Of a stretch of 64,000 nucleotides of DNA, positions 8,417-61,557 are shown one piece after another. The stretch comes from a phage, in sequence record MZ956761.1; one strand, written 5' to 3'. Position 1 is the first letter of the stretch, and every line of letters starts with the position of its first letter. Position numbers and translations under genes: made by a program. The notes beneath the pieces are model-generated. The model searched no databases. It was not told the DNA's origin and was given only the letters and a program-made list of their open reading frames with translations.

Positions 8417-8446
8417 GTTTACATGCTGATGAGGTAGTGATACTAT
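8417..8446 (+). promoter_or_regulatory. Early promoter (GTTTAC -35, TACTAT -10), copy 1 of repeated cassette
   Basis: GTTTAC 8417-8422, 18-nt spacer, TACTAT 8441-8446; -10 flanked by GAGGTA/TACCTC dyad. Confidence 0.55.
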
Positions 8447-8476
8447 TACCTCATCAAAATTAATTAGGAAAATAAA

Positions 8477-8734
8477 ATGAAAACTTTCAAAGAGTTTGCT
8501 ACAAAAACTATTATCACTGAATCTTCTCATGGTATGGAAGTAAAGCTTGGAATGGCTTTAGCTGAAGCTGAGCGTCTTTTCTCTCGTATTAAAGAACTTG
8601 CTGCTGCAGTCGATCCTTCATCTTTTAAAGGAGACCAAACGAAAGTTAAAGCGCTTTTAGCATTATGCTCTGATGCAGGCGAAATCGCTAAGAACGGTTC
8701 TAAGATGAAGAAACGATTAGAAGATTTAAAATAA
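8477..8734 (+). CDS. Internal-protein-like small protein (CTS-like N-terminus MKTFKEF)
   Basis: 85 aa; RBS AGGAAA; N-terminus resembles capsid targeting sequence with I-x-E site (IITE). Confidence 0.5.
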   Translation: MKTFKEFATKTIITESSHGMEVKLGMALAEAERLFSRIKELAAAVDPSSFKGDQTKVKALLALCSDAGEIAKNGSKMKKRLEDLK

Positions 8735-8746
8735 TTTCACAAAGTT

Positions 8747-8776
8747 GTTTACACGGGGTTTTAGTAGTGATACTAT
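8747..8776 (+). promoter_or_regulatory. Early promoter, copy 2 of repeated cassette
   Basis: Near-identical to 8405-8452: aatttcacaaagttgtttac...gtgatactattacc. Confidence 0.55.
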
Positions 8777-8812
8777 TACCCTATCAAAACAAATGTGAGA
8801 TTGGAGAATAAA

Positions 8813-9046
8813 ATGAAAACTTATCAAGAATTTATTGCTGAAACTGCTGATGTAAAAGTTGAGTTTATTTATACTGACAAGAAAGATAAAATGGGTGAAA
8901 TGCCTCATGGAGTTCTTCGCGATGCATTAGATAATTTCGGTCAACTCGCTGCAGAAGATTACGGTGATAAAATTGTTGTTACTGGTCCTGCTGCAGTTAT
9001 TGAAAAATGGGCAGCAGAAAATAAATCAATTTTTCGTAAAAAATAA
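8813..9046 (+). CDS. Internal protein (IPI-locus type), CTS MKTYQEFIAE
   Basis: 77 aa from ATG 8813 (RBS GGAGAA); exact T4 internal-protein N-terminal decapeptide. Confidence 0.6.
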   Translation: MKTYQEFIAETADVKVEFIYTDKKDKMGEMPHGVLRDALDNFGQLAAEDYGDKIVVTGPAAVIEKWAAENKSIFRKK

Positions 9047-9076
9047 GTTTACTTTTAGATAGGGTAGTGATACTAT
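9047..9076 (+). promoter_or_regulatory. Early promoter, copy 3 of repeated cassette
   Basis: GTTTAC 9047-9052, TACTAT 9071-9076; -10 flanked by 9-bp dyad GATAGGGTA/TACCCTATC. Confidence 0.55.
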
Positions 9077-9104
9077 TACCCTATCAACTACTGAGGAGAA
9101 TAAA

Positions 9105-10088: not shown

Positions 10089-10161
10089 TGGGAATTAGCC
10101 AAGTTGGTAAGGCATAGCACTTTGACTGCTAGATGCAAAGGTTCGAGTCCTTTATTCCCAG
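10089..10161 (+). tRNA. tRNA-Gln (UUG)
   Basis: Acceptor tgggaat/attccca, T-loop ttcgagt, anticodon loop cTTTGAc. Confidence 0.85.
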
Positions 10162-10162
10162 C

Positions 10163-10249
10163 GCGAGAATGGTCAAATTGGTAAAGGCACAGCACTTAAA
10201 ATGCTGCGGAATGATTTCCTTGTGGGTTCGAGTCCCACTTCTCGCACCA
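10163..10249 (+). tRNA. tRNA-Leu (UAA), type II, CCA encoded
   Basis: Acceptor gcgagaa/ttctcgc, anticodon loop cTTAAAa, long variable arm. Confidence 0.85.
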
Positions 10250-10254
10250 AATTT

Positions 10255-10328
<74 letters not shown>

Positions 10329-10338
10329 ATTTAATCTA

Positions 10339-10412
10339 CTCCGTGTAGCTCAGTTTGGTAGAGCGCCTGATTTGGGATCAGGAGGTCCAAGGTTCAAATC
10401 CTTGTATGGAGA
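10339..10412 (+). tRNA. tRNA-Pro (UGG)
   Basis: Acceptor ctccgtg/tatggag (two G-U), anticodon loop tTTGGGa. Confidence 0.8.
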
Positions 10413-10414
10413 CT

Positions 10415-10504
10415 GGAGGCGTGGCAGAGTGGTTTAATGCACCGGTCTTGAAAACCGGCAGTCGCTCCGGCGACTCATAGGTTCAAATCCTATCGCCTCC
10501 GCCA
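10415..10504 (+). tRNA. tRNA-Ser (UGA), type II, CCA encoded
   Basis: Acceptor ggaggcg/cgcctcc, anticodon loop cTTGAAa, long variable arm. Confidence 0.85.
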
Positions 10505-10509
10505 GTTTT

Positions 10510-10585
10510 GCTGATTTAGCTCAGTAGGTAGAGCAACTCACTTGTAATGAGAAGGTCGGCGGTTCGATTCCGTCAATCAGCACCA
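10510..10585 (+). tRNA. tRNA-Thr (UGU), CCA encoded
   Basis: Acceptor gctgatt/aatcagc, anticodon loop cTTGTAa. Confidence 0.85.
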
Positions 10586-10586
10586 A

Positions 10587-10661
10587 GGCCCTGTAGCTGG
10601 AAGGTTCAAGCAAGCGACTCATAATCGCCAGATGGTGGTTCAATTCCACCCAGGGCCACCA
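10587..10661 (+). tRNA. tRNA with CAU anticodon (Ile by analogy with T4; Met not excluded)
   Basis: Acceptor ggccctg/cagggcc, anticodon loop cTCATAa. Confidence 0.8.
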
Positions 10662-10674
10662 AATTAAGAATTAA

Positions 10675-10761
10675 GGGGAGTTATCCCGTAGAGGTAGCGG
10701 TGTGGACTGTAAATCCATTGTCATTGCGACTCGGGTGGTTCGACTCCATCACTCCCCACCA
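10675..10761 (+). tRNA. tRNA-Tyr (GUA), type II, CCA encoded
   Basis: Acceptor ggggagt/actcccc, anticodon loop cTGTAAa, variable arm resembling bacterial tRNA-Tyr. Confidence 0.75.
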
Positions 10762-10765
10762 ATTT

Positions 10766-10840
10766 GGATGTGTAGCTCAATGGCAGAGCGATCGCCTGTT
10801 AAGCGATTGGTTATAGGTTCGAATCCTATCACGTCCGCCA
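10766..10840 (+). tRNA. tRNA-Asn (GUU), CCA encoded
   Basis: Acceptor ggatgtg/cacgtcc, anticodon stem atcgc/gcgat, loop cTGTTAa. Confidence 0.8.
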
Positions 10841-10954
10841 AATTTGTGACAACTGTCACATTAATATCTACTTGACGCGATTATAGGGGTTGAACTGATC
10901 ACTCTTCTCTTAATTTCGTGTGAAGACATCTTGATTGTTGGAGTAGGTATTAAT
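10841..10954 (+). ncRNA. Inter-tRNA spacer, possible small stable RNA
   Basis: 114-nt segment between tRNA-Asn and tRNA-His with hairpin tgtgac-aact-gtcaca at 10845-10860; tRNA processing would release it. Confidence 0.25.
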
Positions 10955-11030
10955 GTGGCCGTAGTTCAGTTGGTAGAACTCGAGATTGTGATTCTCGTAG
11001 TCATGGGTTCGACTCCCATCGGTCACCCCA
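10955..11030 (+). tRNA. tRNA-His (GUG), CCA encoded
   Basis: Acceptor gtggccg/cggtcac, anticodon stem cgaga/tctcg, loop tTGTGAt. Confidence 0.8.
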
Positions 11031-11034
11031 ATTA

Positions 11035-11110
11035 CGGGGCATAGCTCAGAAGGAAGAGCAAGGACCTTCTAAGTCCTAGGTCGTAGGTTCGATCCCTACT
11101 GCCTCGACCA
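11035..11110 (+). tRNA. tRNA-Arg (UCU), CCA encoded
   Basis: Acceptor cggggca/tgcctcg, anticodon loop cTTCTAa. Confidence 0.85.
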
Positions 11111-11788: not shown

Positions 11789-11816
11789 AGCCCCGACCGA
11801 AAGGTTGGGGCTTTTT
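11789..11816 (+). terminator. Rho-independent terminator
   Basis: agccccgacc-gaaa-ggttggggct hairpin followed by TTTTT. Confidence 0.7.
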
Positions 11817-12343: not shown

Positions 12344-12371
12344 AGCCCCGACCGAAAGGTTGGGGCTTTTT
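12344..12371 (+). terminator. Rho-independent terminator (same sequence as 11789-11816)
   Basis: Identical hairpin plus T-tract. Confidence 0.7.
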
Positions 12372-16916: not shown

Positions 16917-16946
16917 GTTTACTTTCTCCTAGAATTGTGATAGTAT
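16917..16946 (+). promoter_or_regulatory. Early promoter (GTTTAC-N18-TAGTAT)
   Basis: Directly after e stop, upstream of internal-protein gene. Confidence 0.5.
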
Positions 16947-17944: not shown

Positions 17945-18484
17945 ATGAGAACATTTTTAACTGGTCCTTATCTATCCCTGATGAATGCTTTTACACACCA
18001 TTCTGATGCTAGAGTAGAAGAAATTTGTAAAAACGAATATATCCCGCCATTTGAAGACTTACTCAAACAGTACTGCACACTTCGCATAGATGGTGGACGT
18101 CAATCCGGCAAATCAATTGCTGTGACTAACTTTGCTGCTAATTGGCTGTATGATGGCGGAACAGTTATTGTTCTTTCTAATACTTCAGCTTACGCTAAAA
18201 TTTCTGCAAATAACATCAAAAAGGAATTTTCGCGTTATTCTAATGATGATATACGTTTTCGTTTATTTACTGATTCTGTGCGCAGTTTTATTGGTAATAA
18301 AGGAAGCAAGTTCAGAGGTTTATCGCTTTCGCGAATTTTGTATATAATTGATGAGCCTGTCAAATCTCCTGATATGGATAAGATTTATAGTGTCCATATT
18401 GACACTGTACACTACTGCTGTAATAGTAAATGTTGCATTGGTGGTATTACTCGTCCGCAGTTTTTCGTAATCGGAATGCAATGA
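17945..18484 (+). CDS. Small P-loop NTPase-like protein
   Basis: 179 aa from ATG 17945 (RBS GAGAGAATAAA); Walker A-like DGGRQSGKS and Walker B-like ILYIIDEP; where T4 has denV. Confidence 0.45.
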   Translation: MRTFLTGPYLSLMNAFTHHSDARVEEICKNEYIPPFEDLLKQYCTLRIDGGRQSGKSIAVTNFAANWLYDGGTVIVLSNTSAYAKISANNIKKEFSRYSNDDIRFRLFTDSVRSFIGNKGSKFRGLSLSRILYIIDEPVKSPDMDKIYSVHIDTVHYCCNSKCCIGGITRPQFFVIGMQ

Positions 18485-18810
18485 TGACAGATACACAGCT
18501 TTTCGAATATCTCTATTTTTCGCCAAAAACTATTAAAAATAAATTGGTAAATCATTTTGAAATTTTGGCAAATAACAACATTTTGAGCGAATTTTATCCC
18601 AAGCAATACAAATTACAAAAAGGTGTATTCAAAGGATGCAGAGTTTTGTGCACTGCTCCTAATGCACGGCTAATGAATAAAATTCCATATTTTACCATGG
18701 AATTTATTGATGGACCTTTTAAAGGATTAATTACGCAAAGTTTAATGGCATATGATTCTGAGCCGTTTTTAATTAAAGAACAATCTTGGATAAATTTATT
18801 TTCTAATTGA
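18481..18810 (+). CDS. Hypothetical protein, translationally coupled to upstream NTPase-like gene
   Basis: 109 aa from ATGATG overlapping upstream TGA. Confidence 0.4.
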
Positions 18811-19940: not shown

Positions 19941-19970
19941 GTTTACTTTTCCTCTTGACTGTGGTATAAT
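19941..19970 (+). promoter_or_regulatory. Early promoter (GTTTAC-N18-TATAAT)
   Basis: Perfect TATAAT at 19965-19970 with TG two nt upstream. Confidence 0.55.
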
Positions 19971-19997
19971 TTTTCTATCAGTTAAGAGGAGAATAAC

Positions 19998-23735: not shown

Positions 23736-24118
23736 AATTCAGCGACTTTTCACAAAGTGGAAAACCTTCAAAGGCAGATGAATACTTAGGTTTATTAATG
23801 GCTGCACAAGCTTATTTTCATTCTGCACATTTTGAAACTAAAAGTTATGCTAGACACAAAGCATACGATTTTATTTTCTCTGAGTTACCAGATTTGATTG
23901 ATAAATTTGGTGAGCAATATTTGGGGTATTCTGGTAGAAAATACACACCTTCAATTCCAGATGCCAGTAAACTTCCTACCGACACAATTAAAATGATTGA
24001 TCGCATACTAGACCAATCTAACAGCATTTATAAAGAAATGCCTCCAGCCATCCAAAGCACGATAGATGATATTACTGGAATGTTTTACCAAAGTAAGTAT
24101 CTTCTTTCCCTCGAATAA
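23732..24118 (+). CDS. Hypothetical protein (rI.-1 position)
   Basis: 128 aa, ATGA overlap with rI. Confidence 0.5.
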
Positions 24119-24122
24119 CATT

Positions 24123-24146
24123 AGTCTCCTTCGGGAGACTTTTTTC
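24123..24146 (+). terminator. Rho-independent terminator (UUCG tetraloop)
   Basis: agtctcc-ttcg-ggagact plus TTTTT. Confidence 0.7.
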
Positions 24147-24155
24147 ATTTTACCG

Positions 24156-24185
24156 GTTTACTTTCCGTTTGAGCTGTGGTACTAT
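24156..24185 (+). promoter_or_regulatory. Early promoter (GTTTAC-N18-TACTAT)
   Basis: GTTTAC 24156-24161, TACTAT 24180-24185. Confidence 0.55.
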
Positions 24186-24213
24186 ACAACCATCGGATAA
24201 AGAGGAGAACATC

Positions 24214-24402
24214 ATGAAAATTGAAGCACTTAATCAAGAAGGAAATATCTACGTCATCATTAATGGTGATTTTTTCGTCGACATGGATGAAGTTACTAGT
24301 GAAGAACTTGTAGAACTTCTTAAGAAACGCTATAATATGTGTGATGAAGTTGCAACTCGCATGGCATGTGCAATATTCTCTCTTTCATATGTGGTGGAAT
24401 AA
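24214..24402 (+). CDS. Hypothetical protein
   Basis: 62 aa from ATG 24214 (RBS AGAGGAGAA). Confidence 0.4.
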
Positions 24403-24605
24403 TGATTAGTATCGAACAAGCGGATAAAATTAAGGAATTGGTAGCTTTAATTCGTAAAGCAGATGAGGAACTTAGTGACTTTGCTTGGTTTTCATCAGGC
24501 ATTGCAAATAAAGGTATTGAAGAATTTGAAGCTAAAGTTGATAATGCTTTAGAAGCGTTAGATATGTTTCTTGATGAAATTATCGATCATAATACGAGAG
24601 TTTAA
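24402..24605 (+). CDS. Hypothetical protein
   Basis: 67 aa from ATG 24402, coupled to upstream stop. Confidence 0.4.
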   Translation: MISIEQADKIKELVALIRKADEELSDFAWFSSGIANKGIEEFEAKVDNALEALDMFLDEIIDHNTRV

Positions 24606-24607
24606 GT

Positions 24608-24802
24608 ATGCTAACACGTGAACAGTTTGAAAAAATCATTAAATTAGCACGTGATATTGAAATAGATTCATATCAATTAGCAGTTGAGCATTGTGAAGGA
24701 TATTCATACGACGGTATAGAAGCAGCTAAAAGAGATTTGGATAAATCCAAAGCTAAGTTAGTTCAATATCTTGAAATGATTAGGTGGAATAATGAAAACT
24801 GA
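24608..24802 (+). CDS. Hypothetical protein
   Basis: 64 aa. Confidence 0.45.
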   Translation: MLTREQFEKIIKLARDIEIDSYQLAVEHCEGYSYDGIEAAKRDLDKSKAKLVQYLEMIRWNNEN

Positions 24803-24965
24803 AAAGCAGATGTTTTTAATGAAGCTAATTGAAGAATATGCTAATGCAGTTTCTGACTATGAGTATTCTGCTCGGGAAAGAGGTACGGCTTTCGCTAAAG
24901 AAGAATTGAAAATCATGGTTGATGCTCATACAAAGCTTCAGAATTTTATCGAAAATGTCATTTAA
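24792..24965 (+). CDS. Small hypothetical protein (57 aa)
   Basis: ATG 24792 overlaps upstream gene end; not in track. Confidence 0.35.
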   Translation: MKTEKQMFLMKLIEEYANAVSDYEYSARERGTAFAKEELKIMVDAHTKLQNFIENVI

Positions 24966-24967
24966 TG

Positions 24968-25010
24968 GTTTACAAGTTGACAAGGTTATGGTATAGTAAT
25001 CTTGTCAACT
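24968..25010 (+). promoter_or_regulatory. Early promoter with 10-bp dyad embracing the -10 region
   Basis: GTTTAC 24968-24973, TATAGT 24992-24997; AGTTGACAAG 24975-24984 complementary to CTTGTCAACT 25001-25010. Confidence 0.5.
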
Positions 25011-25129
25011 GCCAAGGAGAAGAGAATGAAAGTTTTGTTTGTTGTGTATGTGATGATTCAATATAATTACCCAATGTTTACTTATAATTTGGTAAACAAC
25101 ATTATTGATATGATTCAGAGGAGTATGTA

Positions 25130-25315
25130 ATGACAAGTGAGCAGGCTTTTAAATTAAGAGAATTAATTGAGACGTATAGTAAAGCTGTTCATACATCAAC
25201 AATTATTGATGAATCAGCTTTCTCCGGACATGCTAACAAGATTAAATACAAAACTCTTATGGAAGAAGCTAAAGTAAATCTTGATTCTTATATTGAAACT
25301 TTAATTGGTAAATAA
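25130..25315 (+). CDS. Hypothetical protein
   Basis: 61 aa; RBS GAGGAG. Confidence 0.4.
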   Translation: MTSEQAFKLRELIETYSKAVHTSTIIDESAFSGHANKIKYKTLMEEAKVNLDSYIETLIGK

Positions 25316-25316
25316 T

Positions 25317-25859
25317 ATGAAAGCTGTAATTGAAACAACTGATTTGTTCGGTGACCTGGTTATCGAAAAACGTGATAATGTATACGTTCTGACGCAGGAA
25401 GACGATAGTATTACTATTCTTCCTATGGAATTGCCTGCGATTTTATCTTATGCTCCCTCAGGAGTTACCGGTGTAACTAATATTACAGACGACCTCCAAG
25501 TTCGTTTTTATCGTGGCACTCACGGTGGTAATATTGAAACTGAACTTGCGTGTCTTTCTATCAACAATTGGGCAACATTCGTTGCCAAGGTGAAAGAATT
25601 CTTGGAATCTGAAACAGTCGAAACACCCGAAAAGGCTAAACTTCAATGGGCTAAAGATCGCGGTGCTAGCATTATTAATCCAGTAGCTGCAAATTATACT
25701 ACGACTTTGGATGTCAAGACTTCTTATGAAGATGGCGATGTCGTACTTGTTCGCCAAATTGATGATTCTCGAGCACATATTGTCACATTTACCAAAGACG
25801 AAGCTATTGCACTAAAGACTTATCTTGATTCTGTTATTCCAACTATGATTTCAAAGTGA
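25317..25859 (+). CDS. Hypothetical protein, tandem paralog A
   Basis: 180 aa from ATG 25317; C-terminus DEAIALKTYLDSVIPTM resembles next gene. Confidence 0.5.
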   Translation: MKAVIETTDLFGDLVIEKRDNVYVLTQEDDSITILPMELPAILSYAPSGVTGVTNITDDLQVRFYRGTHGGNIETELACLSINNWATFVAKVKEFLESETVETPEKAKLQWAKDRGASIINPVAANYTTTLDVKTSYEDGDVVLVRQIDDSRAHIVTFTKDEAIALKTYLDSVIPTMISK

Positions 25860-25865
25860 GGAAAT

Positions 25866-26387
25866 ATGTTTATTTCAAGTGGAAGTGGTTTAATTCGTGT
25901 TGAATTTAAAAATGACATCTTCCTTAGTCAAGGAGATGATATTATTAAAATGAGTTATGACGAAATCAAGAAAATTTGTCATGCTCTTGAAAGTCATGGA
26001 AAAGTGAACGCTGTTATTGATATTGGCGATTTATGGGTGACACTTTATGAAGTATCCGAAGGATTTAACATTGAAGATGAAAATAACATTTTAGCTATTG
26101 ATAAAAGAAGTGATTTGTTTGATGTATTAAAAGTTTATGAACAGTCAAATGGCGGAAGAAAAGCTGCATTGATTTATCAAAAACCGCATTCATGTGGAAC
26201 TGCTTCAATCATTTCAAATATTGAAGATGAAGTTGATACTTATATGTGTGTTTTAAAAGCTGGTGGTGACCGTCATCCGGATTTTATTTCTATTCGTCAA
26301 AACAATGGAGAAATTTCATTATCAAAATCAGAAGCTGAAGCTATGATTAAGTATTTAACAACTGTTACGCCTTCAATGAAAGGATAA
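25866..26387 (+). CDS. Hypothetical protein, tandem paralog B
   Basis: 173 aa; C-terminus SEAEAMIKYLTTVTPSM. Confidence 0.5.
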   Translation: MFISSGSGLIRVEFKNDIFLSQGDDIIKMSYDEIKKICHALESHGKVNAVIDIGDLWVTLYEVSEGFNIEDENNILAIDKRSDLFDVLKVYEQSNGGRKAALIYQKPHSCGTASIISNIEDEVDTYMCVLKAGGDRHPDFISIRQNNGEISLSKSEAEAMIKYLTTVTPSMKG

Positions 26388-26389
26388 TT

Positions 26390-26851
26390 ATGATTATTAA
26401 TGAAAACTCTTGGCATTATAAATTATTCAAATTGTTTAACGATGAATGGCAACGACCTAAGACACTATGCGCATATTTTTGGTCTATTGTCATTCCTACA
26501 TTTTTCGTTTCTATTTTTGGGTGTGCTATACTCGTAGGGCTAACAATTATTTGTGCAGAAAGCCTACAACGTTGGCTTATTTTCGGTAGTTTATGGACTC
26601 TTCTTCCATCGGCATTTATACTTGCGCTTTTGGTTGTTTTACTTATTATCGGTTCATTTGTTATTCCTGCACATTTGCGTGAAAAATATAAAGATTATAA
26701 ATGGAAAAAGGATTATGCTTTACACGTAGAAAATATTGATAGAGCGTATAAAGGTTTACCTCCTATTCAACCCAAGAAATCGGTTATCGTTGAATTTTTA
26801 AAAGCTCGTAAAGCTAAAGTATGTCCTGTTATTGAATATAAGGCTGAATGA
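26390..26851 (+). CDS. Membrane protein
   Basis: 153 aa, at least two hydrophobic helices. Confidence 0.5.
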   Translation: MIINENSWHYKLFKLFNDEWQRPKTLCAYFWSIVIPTFFVSIFGCAILVGLTIICAESLQRWLIFGSLWTLLPSAFILALLVVLLIIGSFVIPAHLREKYKDYKWKKDYALHVENIDRAYKGLPPIQPKKSVIVEFLKARKAKVCPVIEYKAE

Positions 26852-27861
26852 TGAAAACAGTAATGAAAAGCTATTTTGGTAGTCATCTTTATGGAACTTC
26901 TACCCCAGAATCTGATGTAGATTTTAAAGAAATTTTTGTTCCTCCTGCTCGCGATATTCTTATCGGAAATGTTAAAGAGCACATGAGTAAAAACACCAAC
27001 AACACATCATCTAAAAACACTAAAGATGATATTGACCATGAACTATACAGTCTTAAGTATTTCTTTAAATTAGCAGCAGATGGTGAAACTGTAGCATTGG
27101 ATATGCTCCACACTCCACCTGAACTAGTGGTTAAATCTGATTTACCTGATGTATGGAAATTTATCCAAGACAATCGTTCACGGTTTTATACAACTAACAT
27201 GAAATCCTATTTAGGATATGTCCGCAAGCAAGCTTCTAAATACGGTGTCAAGGGTTCTCGTTTGGCCGCATTACGTGATGTATTGAAAGTAGTTAATCAA
27301 ATCCCTGACCAGTGGGTTGATTATCAAGAAGACGGTTCTATTAAGCAGCGTCGCACTAAAGTTGAAGATATTAAGCATCGTCTTCCAGAGAACGAATTCT
27401 GTGAATGGGTATTCCATAATCATGAGAAAACCGGTCCACAAACGTTCTACACTGTGTTGGGTCGTAAATATCAGACAACACTTTCTCTTATTGAGCTTAA
27501 GCAGTCACTGAACAAATTAGATGCTGAATACGGCGAACGTGCTCGTAAGGCTGAAGCGAATGAGGGCATTGACTGGAAAGCTCTGAGTCATGCTTGTCGT
27601 GGTGGACTCCAACTATTGGAAATTTACAAAACTGGTGACTTAGTCTATCCACTTCAAGACGCTCCATTTATTCTCGACGTGAAGCTGGGTAAACACCCAT
27701 TTAAAACTGTTCAAGAGTTTTTGGAAGATGTGGTCGATCAAGTAGAAGCAGCATCCATTGAAGCTTCTAAGAACGGTATGCAGCAAAAAGTAGACATGGG
27801 TTTTTGGGATGACTTCCTTGAGAGGGTTTATCTTGAAAACCACCGAAGTTATTATAAATGA
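26848..27861 (+). CDS. Nucleotidyltransferase-fold protein (Pol-beta superfamily-like)
   Basis: 337 aa; N-terminal FGSHLYGTSTPESDVDF matches G-S ... D-x-D nucleotidyltransferase motif. Confidence 0.5.
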   Translation: MMKTVMKSYFGSHLYGTSTPESDVDFKEIFVPPARDILIGNVKEHMSKNTNNTSSKNTKDDIDHELYSLKYFFKLAADGETVALDMLHTPPELVVKSDLPDVWKFIQDNRSRFYTTNMKSYLGYVRKQASKYGVKGSRLAALRDVLKVVNQIPDQWVDYQEDGSIKQRRTKVEDIKHRLPENEFCEWVFHNHEKTGPQTFYTVLGRKYQTTLSLIELKQSLNKLDAEYGERARKAEANEGIDWKALSHACRGGLQLLEIYKTGDLVYPLQDAPFILDVKLGKHPFKTVQEFLEDVVDQVEAASIEASKNGMQQKVDMGFWDDFLERVYLENHRSYYK

Positions 27862-27864
27862 TAA

Positions 27865-27888
27865 GGGAGCCTTCGGGCTCCCTTTTTT
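27865..27888 (+). terminator. Rho-independent terminator (UUCG tetraloop)
   Basis: gggagcc-ttcg-ggctccc plus TTTTTT. Confidence 0.75.
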
Positions 27889-27912: not shown

Positions 27913-27942
27913 GTTTACAAGCATAAAGCTTTATGGTACTAT
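27913..27942 (+). promoter_or_regulatory. Early promoter (GTTTAC-N18-TACTAT)
   Basis: Spacer holds 14-bp palindrome cataaagctttatg at 27922-27935. Confidence 0.55.
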
Positions 27943-29351: not shown

Positions 29352-29381
29352 GTTTACAAGACTGTTCCTTTGTGGTACTAT
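29352..29381 (+). promoter_or_regulatory. Early promoter (GTTTAC-N18-TACTAT)
   Basis: GTTTAC 29352-29357, TACTAT 29376-29381. Confidence 0.55.
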
Positions 29382-29409
29382 ACAACTATCAACTACGGAG
29401 GAACACAAA

Positions 29410-46248: not shown

Positions 46249-47933
46249 AGAATTTTAAACTAAACCGAGTTAGGTATCAAAATATAATGTCAGTAGGTGG
46301 AAATCCTATTGACATTCAACTAGATAAGGTTCAAAAAACTCTTATTACTGGACGAAATGGCGGTGGTAAGTCTACTATGTTAGAAGCCATCACATTTGGG
46401 CTTTTTGGCAAGCCATTTCGTGATGTAAAGAAAGGTCAATTAATAAACAGCACAAATAAGAAAGAACTTTTAGTTGAACTGTGGATGGAATATGATGAGA
46501 AAAAGTACTATATCAAAAGAGGACAAAAACCAAACGTTTTCGAAATCACCGTTAACGGTACACGTCTTAATGAATCTGCCAGCAGTAAAGATTTCCAAGC
46601 AGAATTTGAACAGCTTATCGGAATGTCATATGCCAGTTTCAAGCAGATTGTTGTCCTTGGTACAGCAGGGTATACCCCTTTCATGGGTTTGTCGACCCCT
46701 GCACGAAGAAAGCTTGTGGAAGACCTGCTCGAGGTAGGAACATTAGCTGAAATGGATAAGCTTAATAAAGCACTAATACGTGAATTAAATTCACAAAACC
46801 AAGTGCTTGATGTTAAAAAAGATAGTATTATCCAACAAATTAAAATATATAATGATAACGTTGAACGCCAGAAAAAATTAACTGGTGATAACCTTACTCG
46901 TCTACAGAATATGTATGATGATTTGGCAAAAGAAGCTAGAACGTTAAAATCGGAAATAGAAGAAGCTAATGAAAGATTAGTTAATATTGTTTTGGATGAA
47001 GACCCGACTGATGCATTTAATAAAATCGGTCAAGAAGCATTTTTAATTAAATCAAAAATTGACTCGTATAATAAAGTCATTAATATGTATCACGAAGGTG
47101 GATTATGTCCAACCTGTTTGTCACAATTAAGTTCCGGTGATAAAGTTGTTTCTAAAATTAAAGATAAAGTTTCTGAATGCACGCATTCGTTTGAACAGCT
47201 TTCAACNCNNCNNGNNNNNNNNNNAGTATNTCGTTNNTNANTNNNGNGATNNTNNNAANNNCNANNNGTNNGTTGCTTGCNNNTNNTNTGTNNCNNTNNA
47301 AANCANTNNNTNNNCACGACTGTAGATAAAGCTAAAANAGTTAAAGCAGCTATAGAANAAGCATCATCTGAGTTTATTGNCCATGCTGATNAAATNGCNC
47401 TGCTTNAAGANGAACTTGATAAAATTGTTAAGNCAAANACTAATTTNNTAATGGAAAAATNCCACNGAGGAATTTTGACTGATATGCTCAAAGATTCTGG
47501 TATTAANGGTGCTATTATTAAAAAGTACATTCCATTATTTAATAAGCAGATTAACCATTATCTTAAAATAATGGAAGCGGATTATGTGTTTACATTAGAT
47601 GAAGAATTTAATGAGACAATTAAATCCCGTGGTCGTGAAGATTTTAGTTATGCTTCATTCAGTCAAGGCGAAAAAGCACGAATTGATATTGCTCTTCTAT
47701 TTACTTGGCGTGATATTGCTGAAAAAGTTTCAGGTGTTAAAATAAACACACTAATTCTCGATGAAGTTTTTGATTCAGCAACTGATGTTGAAGGTGTAAA
47801 AGCTATTTCAACTATTTTAGATAGTTTAAAAAATACTAATGTTTTTGTTATTTCACATAGAGACCACGACCCGCAAGCATATGGTCAGCATCTTCAAATG
47901 AAGAAAGTTGGTCGATTTACTGTAATGGTTTAA
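46245..47933 (+). CDS. 46: Recombination ATPase subunit gp46 (Rad50/SbcC-like)
   Basis: 562 aa; Walker A GRNGGGKST, central coiled coil, C-terminal signature region; interior partly masked by n. Confidence 0.9.
   Translation: MKNFKLNRVRYQNIMSVGGNPIDIQLDKVQKTLITGRNGGGKSTMLEAITFGLFGKPFRDVKKGQLINSTNKKELLVELWMEYDEKKYYIKRGQKPNVFEITVNGTRLNESASSKDFQAEFEQLIGMSYASFKQIVVLGTAGYTPFMGLSTPARRKLVEDLLEVGTLAEMDKLNKALIRELNSQNQVLDVKKDSIIQQIKIYNDNVERQKKLTGDNLTRLQNMYDDLAKEARTLKSEIEEANERLVNIVLDEDPTDAFNKIGQEAFLIKSKIDSYNKVINMYHEGGLCPTCLSQLSSGDKVVSKIKDKVSECTHSFEQLSXXXXXXXVXRXXXXXXXXXXXXXCLXXXCXXXXXXXXTTVDKAKXVKAAIEXASSEFIXHADXXXLLXXELDKIVKXXTNXXMEKXHXGILTDMLKDSGIXGAIIKKYIPLFNKQINHYLKIMEADYVFTLDEEFNETIKSRGREDFSYASFSQGEKARIDIALLFTWRDIAEKVSGVKINTLILDEVFDSATDVEGVKAISTILDSLKNTNVFVISHRDHDPQAYGQHLQMKKVGRFTVMV
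47207..47466. other. Stretch of partly ambiguous bases (n) inside gene 46
   Basis: n interleaved with called bases; translation gives X runs. Confidence 0.9.
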
Positions 47934-58667: not shown

Positions 58668-60095
58668 GTGGTAGAAATTATTCTTTCTCATCTCATATTT
58701 GATCAAGCTTATTTTTCAAAAGTTTGGCCATATATGGATTCAGAATATTTTGAAAGTGGTCCAGCTAAAAATACATTCAAATTAATTAAATCTCATGTTA
58801 ATGAGTACCATAGCGTTCCATCTATTAATGCGTTAAATGTTGCATTAGAAAATAGTTCATTTACTGAAACAGAATATTCTGGTGTAAAAACACTTATTTC
58901 AAAACTAGCTGATTCTCCGGAAGACCACAGTTGGTTAATAAAAGAAACAGAAAAATATGTTCAGCAAAGGGCGATGTTTAATGCTACGTCTAAAATAATC
59001 GAAATTCAAACTAATGCTGAGCTTCCTCCGGAAAAACGAAATAAGAAAATGCCGGACGTTGGTGCTATTCCTGACATCATGCGTCAAGCATTATCTATTT
59101 CATTTGATAGCTACGTTGGTCATGATTGGATGGATGACTACGAAGCACGCTGGCTATCTTATATGAATAAAGCTCGTAAAGTTCCATTTAAACTTCGTAT
59201 TTTGAATAAAATTACAAAAGGCGGAGCTGAAACAGGAACACTGAACGTTTTAATGGCTGGTGTTAACGTTGGTAAGTCATTAGGATTGTGTTCATTAGCA
59301 GCAGATTATTTGCAGCTCGGACATAATGTTCTTTACATTTCCATGGAAATGGCAGAAGAAGTTTGTGCTAAGCGTATTGACGCTAATATGCTTGATGTTT
59401 CTCTTGATGACATTGATGATGGGCATATTTCTTACGCTGAGTATAAAGGAAAAATGGAAAAATGGCGTGAGAAATCTACTCTCGGTCGTTTAATCGTTAA
59501 GCAATATCCCACTGGTGGAGCAGACGCTAATACATTTCGATCGCTTTTAAACGAATTGAAGCTCAAGAAGAATTTTGTTCCAACAATCATTATTGTTGAC
59601 TATCTAGGTATTTGTAAATCTTGCCGCATCAGAGTTTATTCAGAAAATAGTTACACAACTGTTAAAGCTATCGCAGAGGAATTGCGTGCTCTGGCTGTTG
59701 AAACCGAAACTGTTCTTTGGACTGCAGCGCAGGTTGGTAAGCAAGCTTGGGATTCTTCTGATGTTAACATGAGCGATATTGCAGAATCTGCCGGTCTTCC
59801 AGCAACAGCCGATTTTATGCTTGCGGTCATTGAAACCGAGGAGCTAGCAGCTGCTGAACAACAACTCATTAAGCAAATCAAATCACGATATGGTGATAAG
59901 AATAAATGGAATAAGTTTTTGATGGGTGTTCAAAAAGGAAATCAGAAATGGGTAGAAATTGAACAAGATTCTACTCCAACTGAAGTAAGTGAAGTAGCAG
60001 GTTCACAGCAGATTCAGGCTGAACAGAATCGCTATCAAAGAAACGAATCTGCTCGAGCCCAGTTAGATGCTTTAGCGAATGAATTAAAATTTTAG
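58668..60095 (+). CDS. 41: Replicative DNA helicase gp41
   Basis: 475 aa, GTG start after AAGGAG; MVEIILSHLIFDQAYF; Walker A GVNVGKS. Confidence 0.95.
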   Translation: MVEIILSHLIFDQAYFSKVWPYMDSEYFESGPAKNTFKLIKSHVNEYHSVPSINALNVALENSSFTETEYSGVKTLISKLADSPEDHSWLIKETEKYVQQRAMFNATSKIIEIQTNAELPPEKRNKKMPDVGAIPDIMRQALSISFDSYVGHDWMDDYEARWLSYMNKARKVPFKLRILNKITKGGAETGTLNVLMAGVNVGKSLGLCSLAADYLQLGHNVLYISMEMAEEVCAKRIDANMLDVSLDDIDDGHISYAEYKGKMEKWREKSTLGRLIVKQYPTGGADANTFRSLLNELKLKKNFVPTIIIVDYLGICKSCRIRVYSENSYTTVKAIAEELRALAVETETVLWTAAQVGKQAWDSSDVNMSDIAESAGLPATADFMLAVIETEELAAAEQQLIKQIKSRYGDKNKWNKFLMGVQKGNQKWVEIEQDSTPTEVSEVAGSQQIQAEQNRYQRNESARAQLDALANELKF

Positions 60096-60131
60096 TTTAC
60101 AAGCCGACAAGACTATGGTATAGTAGTCTTG
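60094..60131 (+). promoter_or_regulatory. Early promoter with 9-bp dyad embracing the -10 region
   Basis: GTTTAC 60094-60099, TATAGT 60118-60123; ACAAGACTA 60106-60114 complementary to TAGTCTTGT 60123-60131. Confidence 0.5.
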
Positions 60132-60153
60132 TTGGTTAAATGAGGAGATTGTT

Positions 60154-60336
60154 ATGGAATTGGTAAAGGTAGTTTTTATGGGGTGGTTTAAGAACGAAAG
60201 CATGTTTACTAAAGAAATCACAATGATGAAAGATGACGTTCAATGGGCTACTAATCAATATGCTGAAGTTAATAAAGCACTAGTTAAAGCTTTCATTGAT
60301 GACAAGAAAGTATGCGAAGTGGATTGCCGAGGATAA
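60154..60336 (+). CDS. dmd: Dmd, discriminator of mRNA degradation (antitoxin against RnlA/LsoA)
   Basis: 60 aa MELVKVVFMGWFKNESMFTKEI; directly after gene 41. Confidence 0.7.
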   Translation: MELVKVVFMGWFKNESMFTKEITMMKDDVQWATNQYAEVNKALVKAFIDDKKVCEVDCRG

Positions 60337-60337
60337 T

Positions 60338-60595
60338 ATGCATATCGTTTTATTTAAACCTACTCCGTATAACGTCAGGAAAAATACTCAATTCAAAGCA
60401 CTTATCGCAGATACGTGGGAATTGGTATTAGATATTCCAGCAGAAGAAAGCCCTCCATTTGGTCGAGTGGAATTTATTAAGTTTGCTGTGCGCCCTACAA
60501 AGCGGCAGATTCGCCAATGCAAAAGATACTTTCGTAAAATCGTCAAGTTAGAGAAACAGTTTGTAACATGTGATTATACAGAAGTTTTAAAATAG
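60338..60595 (+). CDS. Hypothetical basic protein (61.4 position)
   Basis: 85 aa from ATG 60338 (RBS GAGGATAA). Confidence 0.4.
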   Translation: MHIVLFKPTPYNVRKNTQFKALIADTWELVLDIPAEESPPFGRVEFIKFAVRPTKRQIRQCKRYFRKIVKLEKQFVTCDYTEVLK

Positions 60596-60597
60596 CT

Positions 60598-60639
60598 GTT
60601 TACAAGCTGATAGAGTTGTGTTATAGTAATTCTATCAGC
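60598..60639 (+). promoter_or_regulatory. Early promoter with 9-bp dyad embracing the -10 region
   Basis: GTTTAC 60598-60603, TATAGT 60622-60627; GCTGATAGA 60606-60614 complementary to TCTATCAGC 60631-60639. Confidence 0.5.
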
Positions 60640-60658
60640 TAATCGCGGAGAAAAGAAA

Positions 60659-60913
60659 ATGATGCTAGTTAATAGAGAATATCAGTTTAAATCAGAAGAA
60701 GATTTGGAAAAATTCGCGAGTGGTTGTGAACTGAATAGACGCACAGCTAAAGTCATAGGATTAAAACCCTTTACAGTTCTAGATTGTGAAGTTTCTAAAT
60801 TCCGCAGAGGGTGTTCTATTAGCGGTCATGCTCTGGTTGATGGGAACACATTTTTCTTTGTTTTTAGCGTCAGAGAACTTTTATTGATTAACGAACTTGA
60901 GGAAATAAAATAG
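60659..60913 (+). CDS. Hypothetical protein
   Basis: 84 aa. Confidence 0.45.
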   Translation: MMLVNREYQFKSEEDLEKFASGCELNRRTAKVIGLKPFTVLDCEVSKFRRGCSISGHALVDGNTFFFVFSVRELLLINELEEIK

Positions 60914-60941
60914 TTTACTTTTGTTTTAAACATGTTATTAT
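60913..60941 (+). promoter_or_regulatory. Early promoter (GTTTAC-N17-TATTAT)
   Basis: Contains 26-bp element identical to 12864-12889. Confidence 0.45.
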
Positions 60942-60977
60942 AGACTTATCAAAACAAACGAGTAAATGGAGAACAAA

Positions 60978-61160
60978 ATGTCTAAAGTATCAGGTTATCA
61001 ATTATTAACACAAGAACAACGTTCAGAGATGGATTCTTTACAAGAACGGTGTCAGCATAGAAATAACGCACTTGATTCATTTTTATTAGTTGAATATGAA
61101 AACTTGTGCTCTAGACTTGAAAAAGAATATGTTCATCAACATGAAGGAGGAGAAGAATGA
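60978..61160 (+). CDS. Hypothetical protein
   Basis: 60 aa from ATG 60978 (RBS GGAGAA). Confidence 0.4.
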   Translation: MSKVSGYQLLTQEQRSEMDSLQERCQHRNNALDSFLLVEYENLCSRLEKEYVHQHEGGEE

Positions 61161-61263
61161 AACTGAAATCACCAATTATTGCAATTTGTCTGTTTGCTTC
61201 TACTAGTGTTTACTTTTGTTGAAAATTGAGATACTATAAATATAAACTACTGAGGAGATTATC

Positions 61264-61557
61264 ATGAAAAAATTTGTTTTTGCTGCAATTTTTGCTTTGG
61301 CTTCTTGTACTGCTCAGCCTGCTATGGCGGGTTATGATAAAGATTTGTGTGAATGGTCTATGACTGCAGATCAGACTGAGGTTGAAACTCAAATTGAAGC
61401 AGATATTATGAATATCGTTGAGCGTGATCGTCCTGAAATGAAAGCTGAAGTGCAAAAACAGCTTAAGTCTGGTGGTGTAATGCAGTATAATTATGTTCTG
61501 TATTGCGATAAAAACTTTAATAATAAAAATATCATCGCTGAAGTGGTAGGTGAGTAA
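61264..61557 (+). CDS. sp: Spackle periplasmic protein
   Basis: 97 aa; signal peptide MKKFVFAAIFALASCTAQPAMA; position between dmd and 61. Confidence 0.65.
   Translation: MKKFVFAAIFALASCTAQPAMAGYDKDLCEWSMTADQTEVETQIEADIMNIVERDRPEMKAEVQKQLKSGGVMQYNYVLYCDKNFNNKNIIAEVVGE

Follow-up and report, generated by a model that had tools for sequence, protein, structure and literature searches.

Early promoters enclosed by sense-strand hairpins in a T4-like phage: covariation and strand bias in support of an RNA-level role

In the phage sequence record MZ956761.1, the early promoter of the mobD.2 homologue begins 3 nt past the stop codon of the upstream open reading frame (ORF; 24963-24965), and its -10 hexamer is flanked by the two arms of a perfect 10-bp inverted repeat. 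Why is a promoter enclosed in a dyad symmetry, and does this symmetry serve the DNA or an RNA that is transcribed across it? We addressed this question by computational analysis of a 64,000-nt stretch of the record (hereafter, the window), which is the long early/middle region of a Tequatrovirus and is transcribed on the + strand. A sequence-only reading of the same DNA had listed such repeats at five promoters and a palindrome in the spacer of another, and had proposed that they are selected as structures, either as hairpins in read-through transcripts or as cruciform-prone DNA. From the results described below, the target of selection is most likely the sense RNA, and not a protein site or a cruciform.

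Inverted repeats around the -10 elements of early promoters

The promoter pattern GTTTAC-N18-TAnnnT has 25 matches in the window, nearly all on the + strand, against 6.2 expected. All the sites considered here have GTTTAC(A)-N17-TAnnnT with A/T-rich upstream flanks and a TGn motif, which is usual among the pattern matches of the window. Every one of the five dyads brackets the -10 element of such a T4-type early promoter (Table 1), and the symmetry axis is the same in all five: it runs between bases 1 and 2 of the -10 hexamer.

We aligned the 19 strong intergenic promoters of the window on their -10 elements and scored dyads whose arms lie on either side of the -10, the left one within the spacer. 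Perfect dyads of at least 8 bp were observed in 6 of these 19 promoters, whereas 0.15-0.3 are expected. Shuffling of the left halves gave a mean of 0.15, the observed count was not reached in any of 20,000 permutations, and only 1.5% of the mismatched left-half/right-half combinations had a dyad of this length. All five repeats listed earlier are thus present in the sequence and are far above chance.

For comparison, we used the homologous 50-kb region of T4, T2, RB3, RB69 (Mosigvirus) and JS98 (Dhakavirus), together with the T4 ipI region. These relatives were drawn from an annotated phage collection; a protein-anchored search of IMG/VR with Dmd gave 5 loci, and a pattern scan of IMG/VR in which only the -35 and -10 were fixed was unspecific, with unrelated contigs prevailing among the matches listed. 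As a control we built chimeras from the 5′ half of one promoter and the 3′ half of another, which retain the composition and the promoter consensus. A helix of -15 kcal/mol or lower that encloses the -10 was found in 31% of 65 non-identical promoters from six genomes, but in only 0.5% of 780 chimeras, an enrichment of ~60-fold (Mann-Whitney p = 2.7e-4). This control rules out the promoter consensus as the source of the dyads.

When folded as + strand RNA, the five sites form stems of 12-15 bp, G·U pairs included, with loops of 4-8 nt, free energies of -16.4 to -22.2 kcal/mol and z-scores of -3.6 to -6.8. The stems are longer in RNA than the dyads described before, and part of the -10 itself is paired. 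Two further -10-enclosing hairpins of comparable strength, which the sequence-only reading had missed, are present at the regB and nrdC.8 promoters.

The palindrome CATAAAGCTTTATG at 27922-27935 had also been assigned to this group. It does lie in the spacer of a promoter, but perfect 14-mers number 9 in the window, this one included, against 6.7 +/- 2.5 expected, and the fold around it equals that of shuffled sequences (z = 0.12). As both count and fold are at chance level, we dropped it from the hairpin class.

Covariation and strand asymmetry of the stems

We aligned 17 hairpins that have the same axis. In this alignment 95.7% of the cells are paired, compared with 84.6% when partners are shuffled, and 13 of 15 pairs show changes on both sides, compared with a shuffled mean of 6.3; neither value was reached in 500 shuffles. 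Slid registers lowered the pairing to 24-66%. In the dmd and mobD.2 stems of Tequatrovirus orthologues, all eight inferred substitutions preserve pairing. Depending on the phage, the dmd pair (-13,+14) is G·U, G-C or A-U and the mobD.2 pair (-12,+13) is A-U, G·U or G-C. Every difference in these two stems keeps its pair and no pair is broken, so the comparison across related phages that had been suggested for the dyads came out in favour of a selected structure over a shared protein-binding sequence.

The arm sequences vary by locus and by genus, as in JS98 (CTTGGGACCA...TGGTCCCA) and RB69 (TTGGTAGGACTAT...ATAGTCCTATCAA). The earlier statement that arms differ while complementarity is kept holds in its second half, but the arms are not unrelated: the five sites belong to two promoter families, one of the ipI-locus type and one of the dmd/mobD.2/61.4-downstream type, and compensatory differences are seen within and between both.

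These data bear on whether the dyads could be DNA-level elements, that is, operators for a dimeric protein such as an early-promoter shut-off factor, or cruciform-prone DNA that modulates promoter opening. The common centre of the five dyads on the -10 is what such an element would show, and early-promoter shut-off is not understood (PMC2988021; PMC3014915). However, a dimeric operator has a conserved half-site and a fixed spacing, and here 13 of 15 pairs are double-changed and G·T pairs break the symmetry of the DNA. In the T4 trna.4 promoter the 5′ arm is displaced upstream by 5 nt relative to the window and still pairs with the same 3′ arm, which speaks against an operator of fixed spacing. 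The stem centres at regB and nrdC.8 are quite different from those of the five dyads, and only about one-third of the early promoters have a dyad.

The two strands of these sites are not equivalent. At all seven sites the + strand folds are more stable, by 3.6-9.9 kcal/mol, with better z-scores; the reverse-strand folds of the five dyad sites reach only -12 to -14 kcal/mol. Across genomes, 24 of 26 strong cases have the more stable fold on the + strand (Wilcoxon p = 6e-6). The extra pairs are G·U, which become A·C mismatches on the other strand. We counted G·T against A·C oppositions relative to a core of Watson-Crick pairs only, which is identical for both strands and avoids the bias of helices defined by RNAfold. 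At the three positions just inside the core, G·T outnumbers A·C by 20 to 1, and by 18 to 4 when the TGn and -10 consensus bases are excluded (binomial p = 0.004, for counts that are not independent). The bias is clear at regB, mobD.2, nrdC.8, dmd and the ORF downstream of 61.4 in Tequatrovirus. Together with the pattern of substitutions, the excess of G·T over A·C therefore favours selection on the sense transcript.

Of the two possibilities raised at the outset, cruciform-prone DNA is disfavoured by the same data: the central spacers left by Watson-Crick pairs alone are 10-16 bp long, which disfavours extrusion, and the template-strand arm would contain A·C mismatches. Cruciforms are also cut by T4 endonuclease VII.

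Two geometries and the read-through transcript

The seven hairpins fall into two classes, which differ in their relation to the Shine-Dalgarno (SD) sequence of the downstream gene. We computed the cost of opening the segment from the SD to the AUG in the read-through RNA and in an RNA that starts 7 nt after the -10. In class I, which comprises the five dyad sites, the difference between the two RNAs is only -1.9 to +1.5 kcal/mol, so that no SD masking is seen at any of the five and this role was rejected for them. From the upstream stop codon to the next start codon there are 58-72 nt, which these cassettes fill; 6-22 nt separate the stop from the 5′ base of the stem, and 3-10 nt separate its 3′ base from the SD. 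The mobD.2 hairpin, for instance, ends 3 nt ahead of the SD AAGGAG, with the ATG at 25027. The dmd hairpin is kept in ~500 Tequatrovirus records, and the stem of the T4 ipI promoter is identical to that at 8427-8456.

In class II the 3′ arm covers the SD. At regB, a CU-rich 5′ arm that follows straight after the -35 pairs with the SD AAGAGGAG, so that the SD is masked in read-through RNA; its opening costs 19.2 kcal/mol there and 4.0 in the RNA from its own promoter (difference +15.1). At nrdC.8, where the 3′ arm covers the SD GGAGGAACA, the respective values are 15.7 and 3.6 kcal/mol (difference +12.1). The regB hairpin is retained in T4-like phages, RB69 and JS98, which represent three genera, with compensatory changes that include one transversion pair (for example, CUCCUCUA/UAGAGGAG against CUCCUGUA/UACAGGAG). 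RNA structure blocks the RegB nuclease, which cuts the SD of its own message (PMC3014915); therefore, this hairpin should also shield the read-through regB RNA. Weaker versions with long-range SD pairing are found at the 12504 and 54379 promoters. T2 has an nrdC.8-type promoter with an SD-masking hairpin at a second locus (reverse-complement position ~42748), where T4 and the window (54379) have a different promoter variant.

Table 1. Early promoters, dyads and hairpins of the window; free energies in kcal/mol
Feature	Positions	Strand	Sequence elements and setting	Stem and stability
Early promoter, T4-type, mobD.2 homologue	24968-24997	+	-35 GTTTACA, TGn, -10 TATAGT at 24992-24997	
Dyad, mobD.2	24975-25010		AGTTGACAAG / CTTGTCAACT	10 bp
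Class I hairpin, mobD.2	24975-25010	+	24975-24989 with 24996-25010; loop GGUAUA	15 bp incl. 2 G·U; -19.6 to -22.2; z = -6.1
Early promoter, dmd (61.5)	60095-60124	+	-10 TATAGT at 60119-60124; -35 overlaps gene 41 stop codon	
Dyad, dmd	60107-60132		ACAAGACT(A) / (T)AGTCTTGT	8-9 bp
Class I hairpin, dmd	60102-60137	+	6-nt loop	15 bp incl. 3 G·U; -21.8; z = -6.8
Early promoter, 84-aa ORF (60659-60913) absent from T4	60598-60627	+		
Dyad	60605-60640		AGCTGATAGA / TCTATCAGCT	10 bp
Class I hairpin	60605-60640	+	8-nt loop	14 bp; -18.0; z = -4.7
Early promoter, first internal-protein-type ORF (MKTFKEF...) after gene 57B	8417-8446	+	ipI locus	
Dyad	8427-8456		TGATGAGGTA / TACCTCATCA; 8431-8452, listed earlier, is its inner 6 bp	10 bp
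Class I hairpin	8427-8456	+	4-nt loop	13 bp; -17.4; z = -5.6
Early promoter, trna.4 homologue (ATG 9105)	9047-9076	+	-35 abuts upstream stop codon	
Dyad, trna.4	9058-9085		GATAGGGTA / TACCCTATC	9 bp
Class I hairpin, trna.4	9058-9085	+	4-nt loop	12 bp; -16.4; z = -3.6
Class II hairpin, regB early promoter	19947-19993	+	-35 at 19941, -10 TATAAT at 19965-19970	-22.4; z = -5.8
Class II hairpin, nrdC.8 early promoter	29363-29405	+	-35 at 29352, -10 at 29376-29381	-17.5
Interrupted hairpin around -10 of 8747 promoter	8755-8782	+	GGGGU/ACCCU and UAGUA/UACUA	-14.6 (51-nt segment); z = -3.2
AT-rich palindrome	27922-27935	.	Spacer of nrdC.10 promoter; canonical terminator just upstream (27863-27884 and T-run)	14 bp

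At all seven sites the promoter stands inside the hairpin: the -10 is in or next to the loop, and transcription would start ~7 nt downstream, in or beyond the 3′ arm. The genes upstream are co-oriented; the -35 hexamer or the hairpin follows their stop codons at a distance of 0-22 nt, and a terminator scan of the window reported no terminator-like site between them and the hairpin-bearing promoters. With the strand asymmetry, this lends weight to the earlier suggestion of hairpins in read-through transcripts.

We hold, with moderate confidence, that these sites are composite promoter/stem-loop (PeSL-type) cassettes, in which the hairpin is specific to the read-through RNA and class I hairpins act on the fate of RNA at the cistron boundary. 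The short gap would have room for one element only, so that a sigma-70 early promoter and an RNA hairpin would be superimposed, the promoter spacer serving as the 5′ arm, the -10 lying in or beside the loop, and the 3′ arm extending over the start-site region. Judging from sigma-70 geometry, the promoter's own transcript should not form the hairpin because its start would lie inside the 3′ arm. Read-through transcripts would hold both arms and fold, and the hairpin would mark them against the promoter-proximal mRNA of the same gene. In class II, where the 3′ arm is the SD, the computed opening costs suggest that read-through RNA would be poorly translated and its GGAG shielded from RegB. In class I, once the RNA has been cut at the downstream SD or in the AU-rich leader, the hairpin may stand as a barrier at the 3′ end of the upstream message and so define or protect this end; by burying the AU-rich promoter sequence it may also insulate neighbouring cassettes. 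At the DNA level, the conserved promoter blocks could double as recombination linkers for the gain and loss of cassettes. For class I, a role in bounding or stabilising the upstream message is the most likely assignment and also the least secure step of the scheme.

Several points weigh against this interpretation. The orthologues in the covariation analysis are related and do not count as independent samples, and the structures under test came from these very sequences. The strand asymmetry is mixed in RB69 and absent in RB49, and some inner G·U pairs consist of promoter-consensus bases (TGn, end of the -10) that may be there for promoter reasons alone. The transcript starts are inferred positions, not read ones; a literature search for experimental 5′ or 3′ ends at these junctions, or for a genome-wide end mapping of T4, found none, and the GoF/gene 41 paper covers the region upstream of gene 41. 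For class I, the computations do not separate a 3′-end barrier from attenuation or other roles at the RNA level.

Several related elements were noted. The interrupted hairpin at 8755-8782 is a paralogue of the 9047 element with its 5′ arm replaced. Where T4 has a single ipI gene, the window has two short ORFs (8477-9046) that begin with the leader motif of internal proteins (MKTFKEF.., MKTYQEFIAE..), and each of them is preceded by an early promoter of its own with a hairpin. Around the -10 of the T4 ipII promoter (T4 ~65775, between ipIII and ipII), TCCTAGAATTGTGA/TCACAATTCTAGGA form a perfect dyad of 14 bp, the strongest Watson-Crick-only case that we have seen; a degenerate relative lies at 16917 of the window.

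Known cassettes, alternative explanations and genome setting

The architecture itself is already known, and the window adds members to it rather than a new phenomenon; the sequence-only reading was right about selection for structure and had not recognised this published arrangement. Arbiol et al. 2010 described the PeSLs of RB49 and phi1 as an AT-rich region, an early promoter, a stem-loop, an SD and a start codon, with the stem-loop mostly between the -35 and -10 or overlapping the -10, and marked G-T pairs in the stems; PeSLs are sited in hyperplastic regions and serve the shuffling of cassettes (PMC2839356). The description was extended to PST/T4 by Comeau et al. 2014, with T4-type promoters and stems just upstream of the promoter (PMC4122927). 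Translation is not discussed in either paper, and two T4 reviews do not mention dyads at early promoters (PMC2988021, PMC3014915).

Like PeSLs, our sites combine in one intergenic cassette, upstream of small ORFs, a strong sigma-70-type early promoter with an AT-rich upstream region, a stable stem-loop that overlaps and encloses the -10, and, at the 3′ end, the SD and start codon of the downstream ORF; at the 5′ end stands the stop codon of the preceding gene. They also lie in hyperplastic regions (ipI, mobD, nrdC and 61.x), with indels between close relatives. Of the extra promoter-plus-ORF cassettes between 61.4 and sp, ADUt has two, RB3 has a single one and T4 lacks them altogether; the junctions coincide with the GTTTAC -35. 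The two cassettes of the window (60598-61207) encode ORFs of 84 and 64 aa, and the 60598 promoter is the left junction of the insertion. The PeSLs that we extracted from RB49 have the same -10-in-loop geometry (e.g. GGGAGTA-gTAAAA-TACTCCC). They differ in their near-consensus TTGACA..TATAAT promoters, against GTTTAC..TAnnnT here, and in their short, GC-rich, perfectly palindromic stems, against AU- and G·U-rich, strand-asymmetric stems of 12-15 bp here. The hairpins of the window lack a T-run, and mini-circles from recombination between cassettes are a feature of the PeSL kind. The PST/T4 stem-loops of the 2014 paper correspond to the canonical terminators of the window, not to the -10-enclosing hairpins.

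As summarised in PMC2839356, the T-even IP-locus (internal protein) elements of Repoila et al. 1994 are PeSL analogues with T4 early promoters and weaker, AT-rich stem-loops of variable size. On that description, sites 8427-8456 and 9058-9085, which lie in the ipI locus, are Repoila-type elements; the same architecture is found here also at dmd, mobD.2, the ORF downstream of 61.4, regB and nrdC.8.

Class II also resembles the control of e, soc, 49 and I-TevI, where a promoter embedded in an SD-sequestering hairpin gives the only translatable RNA (PMC3014915, section 29). In both, long transcripts fold over the SD, and transcripts of the embedded promoter, which lack the 5′ arm, are predicted to be translatable. 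The class II promoters, however, are early sigma-70 and not late ones, so that read-through and own RNA would be split within the early period, and the five class I sites leave the SD unmasked. For class I, a working analogy is provided by intercistronic stabilisers of E. coli of the REP (repetitive extragenic palindromic) type. These are stable hairpins without a U-tract at cistron boundaries, which block 3′-to-5′ exonucleases and set the differential stability of mRNA segments. There is no sequence relationship, and REPs do not contain promoters.

The first alternative to an RNA-fate element is that the hairpins are co-transcriptional terminators or attenuators of upstream transcription that isolate each cassette, which is the function proposed for PeSL stem-loops. 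One phi1 PeSL stem-loop, the single element on which this experiment was made, cut lacZ expression as much as rrnB T1 (PMC2839356). In OL960581.1 (phage SA20RB), WebGeSTer/TransTermHP labelled the dmd hairpin at 18472-18517, which has no U-run, a rho-independent terminator. An intrinsic terminator has a GC-rich stem, a loop of 3-8 nt and a U-run, whereas the stems here are AU- and G·U-rich and a T-run follows none of the seven. None was reported by the terminator scan, which does report canonical terminators with a GC-rich stem, a tetraloop and T5-6 at 12344, 24123, 27863 and 54275, and none is included in the T4 terminator catalogue (PMC5931544, Table 2). The gene order implies, moreover, that read-through (delayed-early or middle) transcripts are also needed for dmd, ipI and others. 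We therefore rejected the intrinsic-terminator reading, and we regard termination or attenuation in general as unlikely. The label on the dmd hairpin is probably a systematic mis-annotation in T4-like genomes; in practice, annotation pipelines wrongly label some of these elements as rho-independent terminators.

The canonical T4 terminators (GC-rich stem, UUCG or GAAA tetraloop, U-run) are likewise intergenic RNA hairpins that separate an early promoter from the gene before it, but they precede the promoter, whereas class I and II hairpins overlap it. Five promoters of the window have such a terminator just upstream (12344, 24123, 27863, 40010 and 54275), and none of them has a strong enclosing hairpin, compared with 7 of the 14 others (one-sided Fisher test, ~0.07). 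The two were never found together in the window, as a terminator function would also have it; this mutual exclusion is only suggestive. Some junctions appear to use an enclosing hairpin and others, in its place, a canonical terminator, and we therefore view class I as an alternative handling of read-through RNA at tight junctions.

Another possibility is that class I hairpins loop out the promoter in polycistronic RNA, which would bring the upstream stop near the downstream SD and keep translational coupling or re-initiation, or would hide AU-rich RNase E sites. Hairpins would then help, and not hinder, expression from read-through RNA. The placement of the stop 6-22 nt before and the SD 3-10 nt after the stem would suit this, as would the unmasked SD, and T4 genes 25 and 38 use hairpins to shorten the spacing between SD and AUG (PMC3014915). 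But geometry is its sole basis, the distance from stop codon to stem is not conserved, and class II hairpins at similar junctions would have the opposite effect; we consider it quite improbable.

T4 is a classic system of quasipalindrome-templated mutation. The repeats could thus be functionless by-products of template switching or of promoter-cassette recombination that are then carried along, and cassette shuffling is visible both in the nrdC.8-type promoter at the second locus of T2 and in the whole-cassette differences between ADUt, RB3 and T4. Template switching, however, yields perfect Watson-Crick palindromes and leaves the persistent G·U pairs, the strand bias and the A-U/G·U/G-C series unexplained. 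Independent arm sequences at regB in three genera and the ~60-fold enrichment over chimeras argue further against it, and we see very little chance that this is the origin of the hairpins. A DNA-level element, even with the perfect palindromes without strand bias of RB49 counted for it, is hardly probable given arms that covary through G·U states.

For the setting of these sites, the window is 100% identical to Escherichia phage ADUt at positions 24000-27000 and 59900-61300, and >500 T4-like records match it at 90-99%. By the T4 annotation, it starts at genes 5/53 and continues with the ipI locus, the tRNA cluster, e, regB, tk, the mobD and nrdC regions, nrdD, 55, 47/46, 45/44/62, 43, 42, uvsX, 41, dmd, sp and 61. 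The T4 GenBank record has no promoter or terminator features in the regions compared. With Rfam 15 at the gathering score, the whole window matched only 11 tRNAs, and the hairpins match no curated RNA family. These tRNA genes are clustered at 10089-11107; 8 are annotated in T4. Downstream of the cluster, in the RNA C/D region, identical GC-rich terminators with a GAAA tetraloop (AGCCCCGACCGAAAGGTTGGGGCT and T-run) stand 555 nt apart, at 11789-11812 and 12344-12367. The gene 46 homologue contains ~40 scattered runs of N (47207-47507) that resemble ambiguous base calls or masking, and the coordinate offset between the window and the ADUt record shifts by 6 nt between positions 24000 and 60080.

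What is modestly new here is the support from covariation and strand bias for an RNA-level role of these elements in T-even phages, the division into classes I and II, and the conserved SD-masking hairpin of regB. The stem-loop half of the T-even promoter cassettes appears to be under selection as RNA structure, in two geometries, and not just carried along. If confirmed, this would refine the PeSL concept, with stem-loops as post-transcriptional insulators and not terminators alone, would add a second layer of control on the gene of the RegB nuclease, conserved in three genera, and would give testable predictions on how T4 keeps expression from a gene's own early promoter apart from that by upstream read-through. 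It is possible, though doubtful, that we are dealing with a general T-even device, in which early promoters nested in sense-strand hairpins tag mRNAs by their origin and give different fates to the messages of about one-third of the early genes: translation and RegB access would be blocked in class II, and a defined 3′ boundary and stability conferred in class I. If true, the e/soc/49/I-TevI paradigm would reach beyond a few late-switch genes and take in the whole early transcription programme, and the device could contribute to the poorly understood distinction between immediate-early and delayed-early expression.

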